DNA from: Moniliella sp. 'wahieum'
Taxonomy: Eukaryota
DNA length: 64,000 nt
Reading direction: 5' to 3'
Assembly (NCBI GenBank): GCA_003971905.1
Contig: RSEE01000002.1
Location: 992,001-1,056,000 of the forward strand
Shown: positions 2,658 to 40,400 of the stretch, piece after piece
Position numbering within the stretch: position 1 is the first letter of the stretch
Layout of the letters: each line of letters opens with the position of its first letter
Translations under genes and position numbers: made by a program
Notes under the pieces: generated by a model
Seen by the model: the letters and a program-made list of their open reading frames with translations, nothing else
Databases searched by the model: none
Told to the model about the DNA's origin: nothing

Positions 2658-3102
2658 TGTAACGCGTAAGCTAGGCTCCGGCCTGGGAAACACCTAGTCT
2701 CTATAAAGCACATAGAACGATCACAGTGTGTACGTGGTGCGTTGGATATGAGATGGCCTGATCAAAGCTAAGTCCGCCTGCTCTTCACATGCCCAGTAGA
2801 GCGCACTGAGAAGTCCACCAAGTTTGATGATATGGCCCGTAAAAACCATGTACCGTGGCCCGAGTGGCCATGCCCGTGCGACAATTACAATCAGCGAGTG
2901 AGAATCTATCAACAAGGTGAGCGATAGGTACTAAAGGGAAGAGAAAAGGAAAAGGAGAAGAGGGCAGTACAAGCAACAGTGGGCAGAGTGTATACAGTTT
3001 CTGGTCTGCCCGCGGCAACTCTAGGGTCTGTAACCCTTTTTTCACAATTACTACTAATCAGCCGCCAGAACGCCGCCACAGGTACGACGTAGCAGCATTA
3101 CA
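2658..3102. mobile_element. Degenerate solo-LTR-like element sharing a segment with the 19514-20344 LTR
   Basis: Termini TGTAACGC...GCATTACA (7/8 inverted match). 2725-2885 aligns by eye in reverse complement with ~20188-20335 (shared gctctactgggcatgt, agcaggcgg, ttagctt, atcatca.acttggt). No matching TSD found, so the boundaries are tentative. Confidence 0.5.
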
Positions 3103-9748: not shown

Positions 9749-11584
9749 GCAGTTCGAAATAGTTGTTATAACCAGCTGAGACGCGGGGGATTCCCTCTCC
9801 CAGCCTTCTGGACGGGAACGTACGCTTCGCCTGTCCCAAAACGCTACGGGTATCGTCCCATAGCATGTGGCACAGTCCCTGTGTGCCCTGCATTCTCTGA
9901 TGTGTGCCTCACTGACCCTGGGCCTAGTACGGCCTCCTATAGATGCACCTCTATGATCCCGACCCAACTCTTCTGACTCCAATCCATCACCTCCTCTCCT
10001 CATCCTTCTGCCCGTCCAGTCTGTTGACCAGGGTCCTATGGGCCAGCCACCCCCGCGGCACTCCTGACCATCTTACTCATCCGGGCACCACACCAGTATC
10101 CCTATCCCCTGGCCTAGTGCCGCTCTCCTTTCTTCTCCTTCTTCTCCTTCTTTTTCTGATCCTCAGTCTGGGTTCAACCCAGCTCCTGTCTTCTCTCTGC
10201 CATTGCACAACTGCACTTAGGACGTCGCTGGGTCACCAGGATCATTACAGTCCCCTAGGCCAACAGTCTCTTCTCCACACGAGGTTGATGGGGCTGCTCG
10301 TCCACGGAACCTCTGCCGTGCCCGTTCTCAAAGCCGTTCGCATGCGGTCGTGGGGGGCTGTTGGCCCTGAAGCTCCCTCTGCTCCCCGAACCCTCGGCTA
10401 TACAAGGCCCCACCCTTCTCATAGCCTTCCGTACCTCTCCTCAGAACTACATCCTCCTCCTCTTTCAGCATGTTGCCTTGTTTCCTTGTTTTTAGTCCTT
10501 TTTCTTGTTACTAGCCATAGTTCGTGGTTTTCCCTCACGGTCCACTAGGGTCTCCCCCTACTCTGCTCGTCAATTGATCAACCCAGTGCAAGCAACTCCT
10601 CCGCTTAATTGCTCCTCCATCTCCCGTCTTCAGCTTTCCGTTCTCAGTTCACCCAGGTCGCGAGGGACTCACAGGTGTCACCCCGAAACCCAGCTCAGTT
10701 CAGCCGCGTGTGACCCTGCCTACAGCCACGCCGCCCCCATTCCCAGTCCAGCTCCAACAGTCCACAGCGCAACATATCTACTATTGCCTCCTCCCCGTCC
10801 CTGAGCGCTGAGCGCGAAGGCTTCAGACACGTTACTGCCGCCCAAGTCGGTGCTACGCAGCCTCACTGTGGCTTGTACCCGCCTCTGCTATACGCCGGGA
10901 GGCCTCTCCACGGGCGGTCGAAAAAAATAATTTCAACTCTTAGGACACCCCATTAATATTTTGCTCTCAAAAATTCCTGCACGGCACAAAAACGCTCCTG
11001 GATATAGGACAGCGAATTATCTCCAGCGTAACATATTGCGCTCTCCTGACCCCCTAACATTGTTTGCTCTCCTACACCTCAGGGAACCATAAACATCTCC
11101 TGAGGAGCACAAACTGAAAAGCTCTCCTGAACCAGGGGATCAAACACGCTCTCCCGGGGCTACAGATACAAAAAGGCTCAAAAGATGATATAGATGAAAA
11201 CATAATTCATTGGCACGAAAGGCAGCCGCCATAGCCATGGCCTCGGTCGCCGTTACAATGGTAAATGGAACCACGCGCACACAGCATGATCGACACCTGC
11301 AGGTCCAACTGGTAGGTCAACACATGACAGCCTTCTTGCCAAATAGAAGATCCCAAGGGTTGCCAAGCGTATCAACCATGAAAGTTGGCCCAAAACCATG
11401 GTGGCGGCGACGATTCACGACACACAACCCAAAGACTTCACGTACACAAGACATTGGGGTTAGGGGACCATGCAGTGAGGCTGACGCACTGACGTCCCTT
11501 GCGCTCGGCCAGCGACACAGAAGAGAAGAGTAAATGTGTAGCCTTGGGCGTGAGGGCGAGAGGAACCTTCCAATTGGAAAGATC

Positions 11585-11815
11585 ATAGAGGGACATAGCA
11601 CGGGGAGGGCAACGTACCGTGCACTTGGATCTGCCGCGCGAGCATAGAGTGAGGACAAAGCATGGGGAGGGCAACGTACCGTGCACTTGGACCTGCCGCG
11701 AGATGAAAGAGTGAGGACAAAGCATGGGGAGGGCAACGTACCGTACACTTGGACCTGCCGCGAGATGAAAGAGTGAGGACATAACATGGGGAGGGCAACA
11801 TACCTTGCACTTGAT
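11585..11815. repeat. 62-bp minisatellite, ~3.8 copies, inside the TIR element
   Basis: agtgaggac recurs at 11648, 11710 and 11772; core ggggagggcaacgtaccgtgcacttgga. Confidence 0.95.
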
Positions 11816-12209
11816 GTAGGTAGATGGGAGGGAAGCAAGTAATGGTCAGTACAAGCAATTTCGACGTACCGAATACTGCAGGCAGGCGGGAGTGCATCGG
11901 TTTGTTGTCAACGCGGTGAAGTTGGAAGGGAGCGGGAATGGGGCATGCCGTTGGCGCATGCCTTTTATAGCTCCCAAATTGTTGGCACCGCCGCGCGCAT
12001 ACACTGCCCCCGTGCATCTCACAGATTCTCTGCGCTCTCAACAGAAACCCAAGCCCGGGCCAGTGTATGGCGATTGGTAATCAAGGTTCCCTGAAATCAA
12101 GCCTGGGGCCAGTGTGGCCTTGATGAGTCATCGCATTAGTTGTTACGCGATTGTGTATTATACCAGCTGACGCGCGTGGCACGTGACAGGAGGACGAAAG
12201 TAATATACC

Positions 12210-12913
12210 AAGGCTGGTCCACTTTCTATACCGCGACTTGGTCGAACTTTACGCAACTGAAGCGCCGTTCATTATTGGTAAGGTCCTGCGCATAGGGCGT
12301 AACAGTAACAACAGTGGAGTTGCATGGGTTGGATTTCGCCCATTTAAAATCACAGGGGTCAAGCACCGCTCCGGGTGCCGTATCGTTGAAGAGGTGGAAG
12401 ATGCTCCTGAAGAGTTTGCCTTACTTGATGTGAGTGGACACATCAACACTGTGTTGAGCTGTTTGAACTAACTATTGATCTCGTTATCAGAGACTTGGAA
12501 CGGAGGCCCCCTTCCAACACGCCTGCACTAAGCGCTGTCTCATTGACCCTCAAGGAAAGAGGGTAGTTGTGCATAATCACGAGATCGATCCCGAGACTGG
12601 CGACTTTGAGGAGATTGAGTACTACACTGAGGAAGCATATCACGAGGGGCAAGGCCGAAGGCCGGTACCCAATGAGTATGCCATACGCAGTCCTCCTCAC
12701 ACCAAACCCTATATGGACCTGCGCATCAGTCGCTCACTCACACACATCACGCCCGAGCGTTTGAGTAGGAACGTCGCCGCAAACATCGACAAAACGAACG
12801 CGATGGCGCACATGAACAAGAGGAATCAGACCAAGGCTCGGCTAGTAGCCAATGCCTTGGCGCCCGACACCACGAAGCCCCGGAGTCTGACTAGGACAGA
12901 GGCCCATGCATAA
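12210..12913 (+). pseudogene. Residual coding fragment inside the TIR element (possible transposase/accessory C-terminus)
   Basis: ORFs 12238-12471 (FIIGKVLRIG...GHINTVLSC) and 12569-12913 read as natural protein and may be joined by an intron; no catalytic motif visible. Confidence 0.35.
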
Positions 12914-13968
12914 ATGTATGTCCTCTCCCACAAATGACCCGAGCAGCCTTGAAGGCTTACGCATTCCGACAGCCTATACGTCTGATAAGGGTGCCGCTGG
13001 TCCAAATGAGCGTTGTAGGGTGTGTGGATAGGACCCTGGGCGAGAGAACAGTGCTCTTGTTCGCCCTTGGAATCTGGGCGAGCACGGTTGTGGGTTCCTC
13101 TCGGCGGCAGCGGGCTGGGCAAGCACATGGTGGGCAGGCGGTAAAGCAGAGAGAGGTCGGAGGCGTGGGATGAGGGCGTGTGCCAGGTCAAGCTGGCGTG
13201 CAGGACGGCAAGGGTGTAGCGCGGAGCGATGCCGCCGGTCTTATTCAGCGCGGGTGAGGGAGGCAGGTGGCGAGGCGGCGAGAGTGGCGTCGAGCATGGC
13301 TGTGTGGGGATGCTGACGATGGGATGGGTGGGCTGGGAATGGGGGTGGGAGAGCCAGCTGTGCGAGCCAAGGGGGGCAACTGGTGGGTAGGCGTGCGCTA
13401 TGTTTCAAGAATTGGCTTAAAATCTCAAGAAATCTCAACGTTGGGCCCGGCTGGCCCCAGTTGCGCGCCGAGACCAAAACAGCTCCTTGGCGCAGGACGC
13501 GGAATTCGCTCCTCTGTAATATTTTTCAAGCCTTGGCCGCCAGCCAGAGAGAGAATGGCCGCCAGAAGCTGATAAAATGAAATTGTGTTCTGCATTAAGA
13601 GTTTAAAATTTCCCAGTCGACCGCCCGTGTCCTTGTCTCTCTAGCCCCACTAGGACCCCCATCAATCATTCGCCAAAGCACGTAACTACCTTGAGTCGGC
13701 CCTTTAGGTTCTACAAGGGATTGTACCCCTAAACCCCCGGCCGGGCCCCCTGGCGGCGCACACCCGTGCGTGATACTGCCAGTGGTCTCAGCCATACCGC
13801 GTAACGCGTAACGGACAACCGCAGTTACAGGTGGCCAGTTTATTAGGCCACCGTTTAGAAGGGTATAGCATTTCTTTTTGTCCCAGACTTACTGCTGCAT
13901 GACATATATGCCTACGGCATAATTGTGTGAGACGGGCAACCCAGGATAGAAAAAGGAAGAGGAAAAGA

Positions 13969-18791: not shown

Positions 18792-19513
18792 AATGTTGGT
18801 GTGGTCATGGTAGGGAAGTGAGTAGTGAACGGGGGCGGGCCGAACTGTTTGAGACGAGAGGCATAGGCCCGTAACCCATATTCAGCCCACGGTATTCCTA
18901 CCGAACCAACAAGCATCATCAGCTGATGCCTCACACGCCTCACACCCCCTGTGGAGAGTGGGGCTTGTCTTATCGTGGCGCGCCGTAGCAGGCCGTAGCT
19001 CTCGCTGCGGGCGGTTTCGCTGGCTCAGCGCTCAGCGCTCATCATTCGTCATGCATGACCAGGACCAGAGGCGTTCTGCCGTTACGCGTCACCGGTTACC
19101 TCTCGAACCGCAGCGGGGACTCCCCTACTGCCTCGGCTGAGTAGGCTGTGCGCCCTCCGCCGCTGAGTAGGGCGTTTAAGTTCTCAAGCTGAGTGCAGAG
19201 CCGCTGAACCTCGGACGCTGTCTCGGCCCACCGCCCAAACACCCCAATATATCACCCCGTTCGCGGGGAAAACTTCGCAGCGTGAGAGCAGTCTTCGGCC
19301 ATTCGGGCAAATGACGCAGGTATCGAAGCGTTATCGATTATCAGCCACTAGACACCAGCACAGGACCACTTCCATACCAAGATATAACAATTCGCGCGAA
19401 TGTTGTCGATGAAGACTTGCGCAGGGGCACCTACCCTGGTCTACCAGTGGCCTACCCTGGTCCAACACAGGCAAAATGATCATGCACCTGTGTGTGATGC
19501 ACCATGTGACCAT

Positions 19514-20344
19514 TGTCACGGGCGGGCGCCGCCAGGGGGCCCGCCCTGGGGTTTTTGGGGTACAATCCCTTAGGCGACGGTAGGTCGACTCACGATAGTT
19601 TCGGGCTTAGGCTGGTTGGCGTGTCCGAGCGGAGCTAGGAACGAGGAGAGGCCTTTGGTGGGGCGGCTGCACGTGTGGCAAGGCTGCGTCTGCACCGGTG
19701 GGCCGTAGTAACGTGTCTGAAGCCTCCGGGACTTAGGGACGGGAGGAGGCAGCGGCGGACAAACACTGCCTTAACTGGGACTGGGAATCGCCGCGACCGA
19801 AGGAGGGCTCGCGCGATTGGACTGACGAAGGGCTGGAGGACGAGGTCGGAGATGTCGGACGCTAACAAGAGGAGCTGCCATTAGCTGGAAACGGACAGGA
19901 GTCGGACAGGATAGGCGGGAAAGGGACGAAGGTGGAGACGAGAGATGACGAGAATGGAAGGGGGGGAAAAGATCCCCATCAACCAGGGGTACAGGCAGGA
20001 TCAAAAGGGAAACGGATACAAGAGAGGGTGTAGAAAGGAAGACATGTCAAAAGCGGGGTTGGTCGCCGCAGGCGCGACCGAGAAAGGAAACGGAAACGGG
20101 GACGGGACGGCAGATGCCGCCACGGCACTGGAAGCTTGGTGGCCTTATTTATAGGCCGGCCGACTTGGACTTGGGCGGGGGGCGACTATTGTCGCGCGGA
20201 GCATGGCCCTTCGGCCACGATACTTAATTTAGCCAACCATCATCACACTTGGTTGGCCTGCGGAGCACGCTCTACTGGGCATGTTCGGAGCAGGCGGGCC
20301 TTAGCTTGGGTCGGACCATCTCGTGTCCGCCGCAGCCCGTGACA
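19514..20344. mobile_element. Solo LTR, 831 bp
   Basis: Termini TGTCACGGGC...GCCCGTGACA (10-bp perfect inverted repeat, TG...CA). 5-bp TSD ACCAT at 19509-19513 and 20345-20349. TATAAATA on the minus strand at ~20146-20153 suggests minus orientation. Confidence 0.93.
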
Positions 20345-20359
20345 ACCATAGTCGACTGC

Positions 20360-21911
20360 AAGCTTCAGGCTTCAAGCTTCAAGCTTCATGCGCCCCGACG
20401 CCAGCGTTCCGCACACCTCAGGCTGAGGCCCTCGGGCCTTTGAGGCTCAGGACGCTCGCCAATTCGCCAAGCAGATCAGAGCCTAGGGCCTATAATCAGA
20501 GCGCCGAACCCCCAACGCTGAGCGTGTTGAATGTTGAACTGAACAAAAGGGGACCTTGGACCTTAAGCCTTTGCCGCATGCTGAGCGTTGATGTACTTCA
20601 TGTGGGCATCACCACACCCTGGCAGAATTGATACGTCGTTTGCCTTCGGATTATAGTACCTGAACGCCAACGTGGCTTTTAAGAGGCGCTGGATTGGAAC
20701 TGTGGCAGAGCAAGGGTGGTCACCCGGTCACTCAGGGGGTGGCCTCAGCGTGAAATCCGCCCAAGGGCCCTGAGGCCTGATGCAGATGAATGATGTCGAT
20801 GAGCACCGAGTCTGACATCTGTTCATACATTACGCGTTACGCGTTACGCCTCCTTGATGCACTTGATGGGTTACGGTTACGCTTAACGTGTTACGCTGCC
20901 ACCCATTCCTACTTGCAGCGACGATGGAGATGTGCAGATTGACTTCATTCGATCATCAACGTCAACGTTCAACATCATCCTATCCGATTCAGGTCGCGCC
21001 AGTGTTTGAGAGTGACTCAGCTGCGAGACCTCGATAGCTGCAACACTGCCGCAACCGTTTTCCGATGTTCAACGTTCAACGTTCAACGTTCAGTACTCAG
21101 TACTAGTAGTAGGCTTTTCAGGTCCTCCGCCCCCTCGGCGCCTCAGCGCGCCAGAGCCTGGCTATTTCGCTCTGCCCTTTCTTCCTCACCCGTACCTGTC
21201 ACACTCACGTGCCACGGTCCTACTGTTAGGCCTTAGGCCTTTAGGTAATCTGCAATAAGCAATCCTTCATCTCCTTCCTAGCCACATGTCTACTCTTTTC
21301 TACCAACGAATCATTTGCCTCCTTGACTGTACTTGTGGTTCTACGCGTCTTCCGCCAACACATAATTATACCTGCTGCCGATACTCTGCGTCTGCCATGA
21401 TTGATTCATATTCGCCGATGCAGGCTGGGTACTGCTATATATACAAGCTAAAGTGGGAGGGAATGCGGAAATGTACACTTAGCATCAGGTACTCAGTCTC
21501 CAGTAGTAACTACTCGTGTACTCAGCACTCATGATACTTGCAAGATTGGCGGATCTGATGTCGTGCCACATGAGCTTCCCCTGTCCCTTCGGCTTAGGGA
21601 GGCGGAAGCCCTAGGCCTCAGGCCGCACCTGCCGCACTTCGCACGCTTTGCGCGTTACTAGGTAACACTAGTAGATCCACGGAGCAACCGGGTAGGCCCA
21701 CCTCCAACCTTTTCTCGGGTTGGCGCAAGGTTTCTCAGTACTCAGTATAGTATACGCTTTTGTTGATTGGCCGATACTGCCGACAGCCCCCCCTCCCACA
21801 CAGCGAGAACAAAAGGGCCCTCTCAAGTAGCAAAATAGCCAAGCTTCTTCATATTCCCCAGTGGTGCAGTTTGTTGATAGTCAAGCTTCAAGGTTGAACG
21901 TTGATGCATCA
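20360..21911. repeat. Field of heptamer palindromic arrays
   Basis: AGCT 20360-20388; (TTA CGCG)n 20830-20849; ACGT->GTAC 21069-21103; (TTA GGCC) 21226-21240; mixed 21881-21911. Confidence 0.85.
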
Positions 21912-37459: not shown

Positions 37460-40400
37460 ATGGCAAGCGACCCCAGTGCGGCTGACGCTGACGCCGGCCC
37501 GCCGCCGATGGCCACAACACCGCCGCTGCTGCTGCCCGCACTGCGTGTGACGGGCGCGCCCGACCCAGACCAACTCTACGACACCGAGTGGCACCGCCGC
37601 CTCCAAGTCCTCTCCGCCCCCCTCGCAGCCCAGCTCGGCAGCGTCGATGGCGCCGCCCTACGCCCACCGGCCGCCTCACTGGCGGACCTGCCGGCGTTGT
37701 ACCAGATTCAGCTCTTCCAGGAGCATGTGCTCGGCATGGATGCTCCGCGCCCCGCCAACCCCGACGCGTCTGAGTCTGCTGCACGCCACCCTACCGCCTA
37801 CCGGCTTGGTGCTTCCGACTGCCGCCCGACGCGCGCTCAGAGCAGGCCCTACACGCCCTGCTTCTCTGTCCTCCAGCAGTATGCCCGCTTCGTCCCTTCA
37901 ACCGGAGAGGACATCCTGGAACCTGCTCGCCGACCCTTCTACGCCTCCGTCTTGGCCACCGCACGCGCCCAGCTCAAAGCCCAGGGCATTCTCCCCTCCA
38001 TCTTAGTCTTTGCCCCACCCGAATGGCCTGAGGAAAAGAAGGCGCAGGCCAAGAGCTGGTCTGACTTTCTTGAACGTACGCACTGCTTCCCTCTAACCCC
38101 TTTGTACTGTTTGGTGGGGCTAACCTCCATACTCATTCTGCTTCTTAGTTGACTGGACGACGGACCGTGCCTCGGCCACCCACATCTTAAGAGACACGAT
38201 TCCTGGAGAAGAGAAAATTGAAGGCCACCAGGCATACCGTACTGTGGTGGTCGATGGTCCCAAAGCACTGTTGCATTTTTACGGGCGGCCCGGCTCGTAT
38301 GATCGCTGGGTGATCAACAGGACCGATTTGGCCCCTCCCTCAGGGGAAGTGCCTCCCCGTGTCCAACCTATGCGAGGGCGCGAGACAAGTTTGGCATGGC
38401 TTGAGAAGAGTGCATTGTACAACGAAATCTTGGACGAAGAGGACTTCGACCTTCCTCCTGCTTCTTCCGCCGCCGACCCCCATGCGGAGCTAAGTGTTTC
38501 CGATGCTGCTGCCCATGGTACCAAGCGCCTGCCTGATGAGCTCGATACGCCAGAGGGAGCAAGTATTAAAAAGGTGCGTCTGGAGATGGAGCCAACGCCT
38601 ATGCCAGAAAGTGCAAGTGGCACCCCACCCGCGCACCCTTTGCCTTCATCAACTCTCCCTACGTCCGCCGCTCCTACATCCCACCAAGAGAGCACGCAGG
38701 ACATTCCACCCGCTGGAGATACGCAGGACATTCCCACCACTGGAGATACGCAGGATATTCCCACCACTGGAGATACGCAGGATATTCCCACCACTGGAGA
38801 TGCGCCGGATATTCCCCTCCCTGAAGGTACCGAGGTCATCCGCCCTCCCGGGGAGGAGTTCGTTTGCCTGTCCAGGCTGCCTGGTTTTCTCTGCAGCGCA
38901 TCCATCCCATTGAGAGACGTTCTTTCCCGGAATTCTTCACAGGTCAAAACCGAAGCAAGACGAGCGGGGTGTACAAGCAGTACCGTGACTTTATGGTGTG
39001 CACGTACCGCCTTAACCCATTGGAATACCTTACGTTACCGCTTGCCGTCGCAACTTGCGTGGGGACGTGTGCACTCTCCTGCGGATCCATAAATTCTTGG
39101 ACCAATGGGGCGTGATCAACCATCAAGCTCTGCCTGACTCGCGGCCACAACGATTAGCCCCCCCTTTGTCGACCACTTCCGTATCACGGTGGATGTGGAT
39201 CGTGGCTGGGTCCCGCCCAAGCTGCCCCTTTCCAGACGGCGCGTCCCCAGACCGCACGAACCCGAGTGGACATCGAGTCGTTTGCCAAGGGGCTGGATGT
39301 CACTGACTGCTGCGCCGGAAAAGGGCGCCCCCAGAACGGGGACATTGCACCCGCCTGTTCGCCCTATGGTGCGGTTCACTTGCGATACGTGCGGGGTAGA
39401 TTGTACCCGAACACGGTATATGCTACTGCACCCCTCCAAGGAGGAGGAAGGAAGCTCGTGGTGTACTCTATGCTACGAGGCAGGGCGTTTTCCTTCCTCT
39501 GTGGGGTGGGGCGATCTGCTTCGAACCGAATTCGACCCTTTAATCCACAGGAAGGCGCACACGCTCTTTGGCGAGCTCCTCATCAGCCTCGGATGATTGG
39601 TCGGAGATGGAAACGTTGTTCCTCCTTCGTGCTGTGCGTGCACATGGCATTAATTGGGACGCGGTGTCCAATACGGTGGGTACTCGTTCGCCTCAAGAAT
39701 GCGCGCTCAAGTTCTTGAAGATGCCGTTGGAGGATCAGTTTTTGAACGAGATGGAACCTAATAAAGCGGGGAAACTGAATCGGGCGCAGCATCACGCCAC
39801 CCGTGCTGGGCCCATATGGGTTGACCGGACAAGGCCGGTTTGCTGCTCCTTTCAACAATACGGACAGCCCTGTGTTGTCCGTCTTGGCCGTCTTATCCTC
39901 TTTGGTTCCATCGGACGTGGTGCAGCATGCTACTGGGCGTGCCCTTGCTGCGCTGGAGAAAATTATCACCAAGGGAACGGAACAACGGGCTGAGCAGATG
40001 GAAGCCAAGGCAAGGCCCATGCTCTTGCCCAGAAGAAGGAACAAGCTAAAACCAGCTCCGAAGCCAACGGCCGGAAGAAAGAAAGCACTGCTGAAGCCCA
40101 GACCGGTGATCAGTCCAAAGATGAGCCTAAGGATGGGAAATGGGTCCCTCCAAGGGAGAAGAGAGCGGCTCTGGCGAACACACATCTGGAGGCGATCCAG
40201 AAAATAAGCAAGAGCATGGTAAGGAGCCTGCTCAACCGAGCCAAACTGAAGATGAAAGTACCATGGACAAGCCCGAGTCAGGGCCGGCTGGTCATCTTGC
40301 CTCAGAGGTTACTCCTCAAACTGCTTCCACCAAAGACGGCGCAGAGCCAGCTTCATCCGTGGGGAAGATGGCCCTAGCCGCAGTGTGCCTGCCGGTGAAA

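Follow-up and report, generated by a model that had tools for sequence, protein, structure and literature searches.

Organization of the analyzed region

The window, i.e. the whole 64,000-nt stretch of DNA that was analyzed, carries a solo LTR (copy B), a remnant of the same LTR family (copy A), which is divided by an insertion (insert N), and a fragment of a third family member. The site discussed below is a short run of 7-nt units (heptamers) within remnant A. Features of the distinguished elements are summarized in Table 1. The neighbouring genes are of ordinary fungal type and encode Vps55, an amino-acid transporter, ribosomal proteins S13/S18 and a protein with a Fungal_trans domain. Remnant A is bordered by the Vps55 gene at about 8.5-8.9 kb and by an ORF at 15.0-16.1 kb. 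None of the 173 ORFs of the window that were scanned (50 + 123) contains a reverse transcriptase, integrase or transposase domain.

Table 1. Features of the LTR copies, the insertion and the heptamer sites in the window.
Feature	Position	Strand	Characteristics
Third fragment of the LTR family, last 157 nt only	2729-2885	-	Stops short of the heptamer site
Remnant A, second part	10613-10908	-	74% identical over aligned pairs to 19642-19929 of LTR B, many gaps
Flank of the heptamer run in A: GGAC, run of four G, AGGAGGCA	10785-10800	-	One G longer than 19737-19751, otherwise 15/15 identical
Perfect period-7 run, 2.1 copies	10801-10815	-	Tandem Repeats Finder, 100% matches
19-nt flank of the heptamer run in A	10818-10836	-	Identical to 19707-19725 of solo LTR B
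Insert N, 2721 bp, non-coding, splits remnant A	10909-13629	-	Perfect 13-bp terminal inverted repeats
Remnant A, first part	13630-13768	-	82% identical over aligned pairs to 19517-19647 of LTR B
Independent TCA+GCGC array, 2.7 copies	19023-19041	+	Flanks unrelated to those of 10801-10815
Solo LTR B, 831 bp	19514-20344	+	TGT...ACA ends, 10-nt terminal inverted repeat
Patch of LTR B matching the heptamer run	19726-19736	+	11 nt, single T-N-A (C-TTA-G), no repeat

Copy B begins with TGTCACGGGC, ends with the reverse complement of TGTCACGGGC (10 nt) and is enclosed by a 5-bp target duplication, ACCAT (19509-19513 and 20345-20349). The name LTR, which a preliminary description of this DNA had given to the family, is upheld by these ends and by the duplication. 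Judged from two collinear blastn blocks, one of 80 nt (77.5% identity, E 4e-9) and a second of 141 nt (75%, E 4e-18), copies A and B are homologous. The 5′ end of copy A reads ACG where copy B has TGT, erosion has affected its 3′ end, and a search around it for matching 5-nt flanks, as would be left by a target duplication, found none. Copy A is an old LTR remnant, split by a 2.7-kb insert.

Insert N contains a 62-bp tandem repeat present in 3.6 copies (11591-11813), and its ORFs gave no Pfam hits. Relative to the solo LTR B, just 2 extra nt (GA) are present at the target of this insertion. The insert has ends whose first 9 nt coincide with nt 4-12 of the LTR; derivation of the insert from LTR ends was nevertheless rejected, since beyond these 9 nt there is no likeness (local alignment scores of 8-10.5). 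Look-alikes of LTR B, remnant A and insert N were absent from the other indexed windows compared, and metagenome contigs scanned with the conserved 19-mer of Table 1 and with the two-block LTR pattern yielded 0 matches each.

Both LTR copies adjoin heptamer arrays, located at 13798-13813 (30 nt outside the 5′ end of A) and at 20359-20388 (10 nt past the target duplication of B), which may only reflect insertion into array-rich intergenic DNA. The segment 1-5600 is extremely dense in heptamer runs of many units and holds about a third of the runs of the window; no Pfam hits were obtained for the two ORFs of at least 120 aa scanned within it. A different type of repeat, with a 27-bp unit in about 4.6 copies (38694-38855), lies inside the long ORF region 38124-39089 (+) and is probably a coding repeat.

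The heptamer run of remnant A and its counterpart in solo LTR B

The minus strand of the run at 10801-10815 reads GCGC-TCA-GCGC-TCA-G, that is, TCA+GCGC twice. It can also be parsed as GCTCA + GC + GCTCA, a 5-nt copy with two mirrored nucleotides. On the plus strand the unit of this 15-nt run is TGA+GCGC, and it meets the rule of a T-N-A followed by a 4-bp palindrome. In the wider context, the minus strand from 10836 to 10785 is composed of the 19-mer, TCG-CGCTCAG-CGCTCAG and GGACGGGGAGGAGGCA, and the plus strand of LTR B from 19707 to 19751 of the 19-mer, CCGGGACTTAG and GGACGGGAGGAGGCA; the right flank of the LTR B patch reads GGAC, three G and AGGAGGCA. The letters quoted in the preliminary description for both stretches were found to be correct when these intervals were read again on the respective strands. 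The 19-mer occurs exactly twice in the window, with no further occurrence even when 3 mismatches are allowed, and its mean count in 100 shuffles is 0.00.

Only two copies, A and B, cover the heptamer site; they are 74-82% alike and have no outgroup. The quoted stretches are 52 nt (A) and 45 nt (B) long, and the excess of 7 nt is made up of 6 nt in the patch (17 versus 11) and 1 nt in the separate run of G. The extra length had been described earlier as close to one 7-bp duplication: the doubled heptamer is real, but the patch is longer by 6 nt and not by a clean 7. Removal of one heptamer from A improves the A/B alignment score (41.0 before, 44.5 after) and leaves the patch with 3 mismatches and a 1-nt gap relative to B. 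A single C-T-N-A-G is common to both copies at the patch, with TTA in B and TCA in A.

Four of the eight mismatches in the 70-pair core block of the alignment sit in the 11 patch pairs (hypergeometric P = 0.018), so LTR B is not a clean “before” state of A. Nowhere else in the core block have the copies diverged as much as in the patch, and the stretches on either side of it are the two best conserved in the LTR alignment as a whole. For this LTR family, copy-specific insertions had been predicted to be enriched in 7-nt cases; no such enrichment appeared in A and B, the one available pair, where 0 of 25 gaps are 7 nt long.

Two particular routes to the observed pair of sequences were considered. 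Independent insertions in both copies at the same point (A +14 and B +8, the latter being a 5-nt repeat around T-T-A) were rejected because 5-nt repeats with a T-N-A spacer are not enriched in the window (3 observed, 2.55 expected). Derivation of the patch of A from a B-like sequence by a single event that copies five and mirrors two nucleotides (5+2), worked out by hand, yields a different palindrome.

Heptamer runs across the window

Perfect period-7 runs that reach 14 nt or more number 55 in the window, whereas 100 dinucleotide shuffles yielded a count of 3.0. The T-N-A + 4-bp palindrome rule fits 40 of them, versus 0.05 expected, and the run at 10801-10815 is one of these 40. The latter could, in principle, be an ordinary 7-nt tandem duplication produced by replication slippage, with a merely coincidental fit to the rule. 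It is a plain perfect tandem copy, the sequence before duplication already had GCGC+TCA, and in most genomes short insertions are mostly tandem duplications. The single-strand fold around 10801-10815 is no better than that of shuffles (z = 0.01), which led to the rejection of a stable hairpin as the driver of slippage at this site and also speaks for the ordinary duplication. Against slippage, the rule is met by only 2.7% of all heptamers, yet by nearly three quarters of the period-7 runs, and period 7 exceeds shuffles 18-fold, whereas periods 5 and 6 exceed them only 1.4- and 4-fold. We therefore regard a coincidental fit as improbable.

Runs composed of a T-N-A, a palindrome and the same T-N-A again number 88 distinct cases; among them 3 are 10 nt long, 9 are 11 nt, 24 are 12 nt, 12 are 13 nt and 9 are 14 nt. 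The modal length of 12 nt corresponds to two copies of 5 nt separated by two mirrored bases. This 5+2 form with T-N-A was found at 129 positions, versus 0.34 in shuffles. In 33 isolated runs, oriented so that T-N-A forms the end of the copied 5-mer, G occupies the middle position of the T-N-A in 24, C in 6, A in 3 and T in none (binomial P = 0.0014 for G versus C), and this bias to G indicates that the underlying event is strand-asymmetric. The isolated scars with the G-biased T-N-A are 12-13 nt long. In runs of 14-18 nt the orientation bias is reversed (12 to 4), and in those of at least 19 nt it is absent; no single one of the models tried accounts for the orientation of both the 12-13-nt and the 14-18-nt class. 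The run at 10801-10815 belongs to the 14-18-nt class, with its opposite orientation bias, and thus may not be a simple 5+2 event. Moreover, the two mirrored nucleotides, GC, are their own complement, and the run is itself preceded by GC, so that here a 5+2 product has the same sequence as a plain 7-nt tandem duplication.

In one segment, 21067-21104, three copies of TCA+ACGT and two of TCA+GTAC abut and have one T-C-A in common, an arrangement that would be expected if units were added at T-N-A one event at a time.

Such abutting of units with different palindromes at a common T-N-A, together with the dominance of the 5-nt copy with two mirrored nucleotides in the window, also favours another explanation, namely that the run is the excision scar of a cut-and-paste transposon at T-N-A, made up of a target duplication and a few mirrored flank bases. 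Hairpin-forming transposons leave varied footprints; the products in the window are far more uniform and, with G in most of the isolated runs (24/33), more strand-asymmetric. A transposase domain was found in 0 of the 173 ORFs of the window, and insert N, the only element with terminal inverted repeats seen, duplicated 2 nt and not 5 or 7. On this evidence we consider an excision scar unlikely. A published parallel in its favour comes from Ustilago maydis, for which the available text of PMC4081816 mentions “numerous small (10 bp) repeats” that are suggested to be transposon footprints. These repeats resemble the window pattern at the level of description: they are short, lie dispersed over the intergenic DNA of a smut fungus and have been interpreted as scars left by transposons, and T-N-A + 4 nt + T-N-A likewise amounts to 10 bp.

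Among the 76 runs of at least 12 nt no long flank homology was detected. The flank matches found are all 16-38 nt long and come from neighbouring arrays, and none involves 10801-10815. Dozens of different units follow one rule, in flanks that are unrelated, and this speaks for a mutational process and against a dispersed family of repeats; a mutational origin of the heptamer grammar of the window is well supported. The preliminary description had proposed that this grammar is generated in place by a mutational process acting on pre-existing neutral DNA after insertion. Its preference for a process over a dispersed family is supported by the unrelated flanks and by the absence of the unit from B. 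Recognisable mobile-element DNA (2729-2885, 10613-13768 and 19514-20344; 4223 bp) contains 1 of the 76 runs versus about 5 expected (P = 0.04, with an even spread as the expectation), which suggests that neutral stretches are not all equally prone. At the run density of the window, a rule-fitting run somewhere in the 514-nt remnant A is unsurprising (expected 0.32, P = 0.27).

An assembly or consensus error may also be considered as the source of the doubled unit, as the ORFs of the window are fragmented. However, a rule-obeying, perfectly periodic gain of 7 nt is atypical of consensus error, and there are 76 runs of this class in the window, so that we judge such an error highly improbable.

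Possible origin of the doubled unit

The LTR sequence common to both copies does not include the run, which hence arose, or was lost, after the lineages of A and B had split. The reading that we prefer, at about even confidence, is that the lineage of A acquired one extra 7-nt unit locally after this split, at the shared C-T-N-A-G, by the same T-N-A-anchored insertion process that produced the other 75 or so runs. A gain in A, and not a loss in B, appears to be the more economical direction because it takes one event, of a kind rampant in the window, and because no difference has accumulated between the two units, even though remnant A is old, has eroded ends and was later interrupted by an insert. 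Had the duplication existed for as long as a remnant with 10-13% of its sites changed, the chance of finding 14 sites unaltered would be only 14-23%. This identity suggests that the duplication may be younger than remnant A, in which case the gain would have followed the insertion of A.

Alternatively, the doubled unit was not made in place after insertion: it may already have been present in the retrotransposon lineage of A, through a gain in an active master copy or as a subfamily difference, or in the common ancestor, with subsequent loss in B. A and B, with only 74-82% identity and 25 gaps between them, could represent separate subfamilies; more than a single event distinguishes their patches, and just these two copies span the site. 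The persisting identity of the units and the abundance of gains of exactly this kind in the window argue against inheritance, and to lose the run, B would have had to undergo a deletion together with several substitutions, with no trace of the palindrome left. Inheritance of the unit seems to us rather unlikely, although less so than slippage.

As for the chemistry of the local gain, faulty break repair is our best guess, by analogy with junctions known from other systems. The DNA would be broken at T-N-A, by a cut-and-paste transposon or another nuclease, and a short staggered or hairpin-capped end would be filled in during faulty repair. Such repair might copy five bases and mirror two flank bases, as occurs in P-nucleotide junctions.

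A bolder proposal, which we put forward only tentatively, is that the fungus possesses a previously undescribed, T-G-A-anchored reaction of strand-asymmetric break and repair, each round of which adds five copied and two mirrored nucleotides (7 nt). Any non-coding DNA that is accessible, old retrotransposon remnants among it, would be a substrate. In that case the run at 10801-10815 would be a single-step product, dated by the remnant in which it lies.

Comparison with known systems and significance

A limited literature search returned no description of heptamers composed of a T-N-A and a palindrome; the mitochondrial palindromes that are the topic of PMC7218506 are, as far as the available part of that article goes, unrelated to T-N-A heptamers.

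The site resembles the birth of a proto-microsatellite in a decaying mobile element in that transposon-derived, non-coding DNA carries two perfect head-to-tail copies (10801-10815) that are absent from a paralogous copy of it. Unlike in that process, the unit is not arbitrary but bound to the T-N-A + 4-bp palindrome rule (40/55 runs), and the commonest related product in the window, of 12 nt with two mirrored bases, is not predicted by plain slippage.

P-nucleotide junctions are formed from hairpin-capped ends and are found in V(D)J coding joints and in the excision footprints of hAT, Transib and Mutator-type transposons. The runs of the window are similar to them in having short direct copies parted by the reverse complement of the adjoining flank. 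They differ in their nearly invariant form of 5 + 2 nt, with T-N-A at one end of the copy and strand asymmetry, and in occurring without a matching transposon or transposase in the window. At 10801-10815 itself the P-nucleotide signature is unreadable, as the mirrored pair is self-complementary.

The A/B pair is too diverged, and the difference between its members is not a clean 7 nt, so this locus alone adds little, and its main use is as one data point in an alignment of all copies of the LTR family. Pairs of “before” and “after” states in repeated DNA are the only non-experimental way to the direction and the rate of heptamer-making. What the run at 10801-10815 does demonstrate is that transposon-derived DNA can harbour a rule-fitting unit that is missing from another copy of that DNA, and the presence of the unit in A and its absence from B argue for mutation over a dispersed repeat or a binding-site code.
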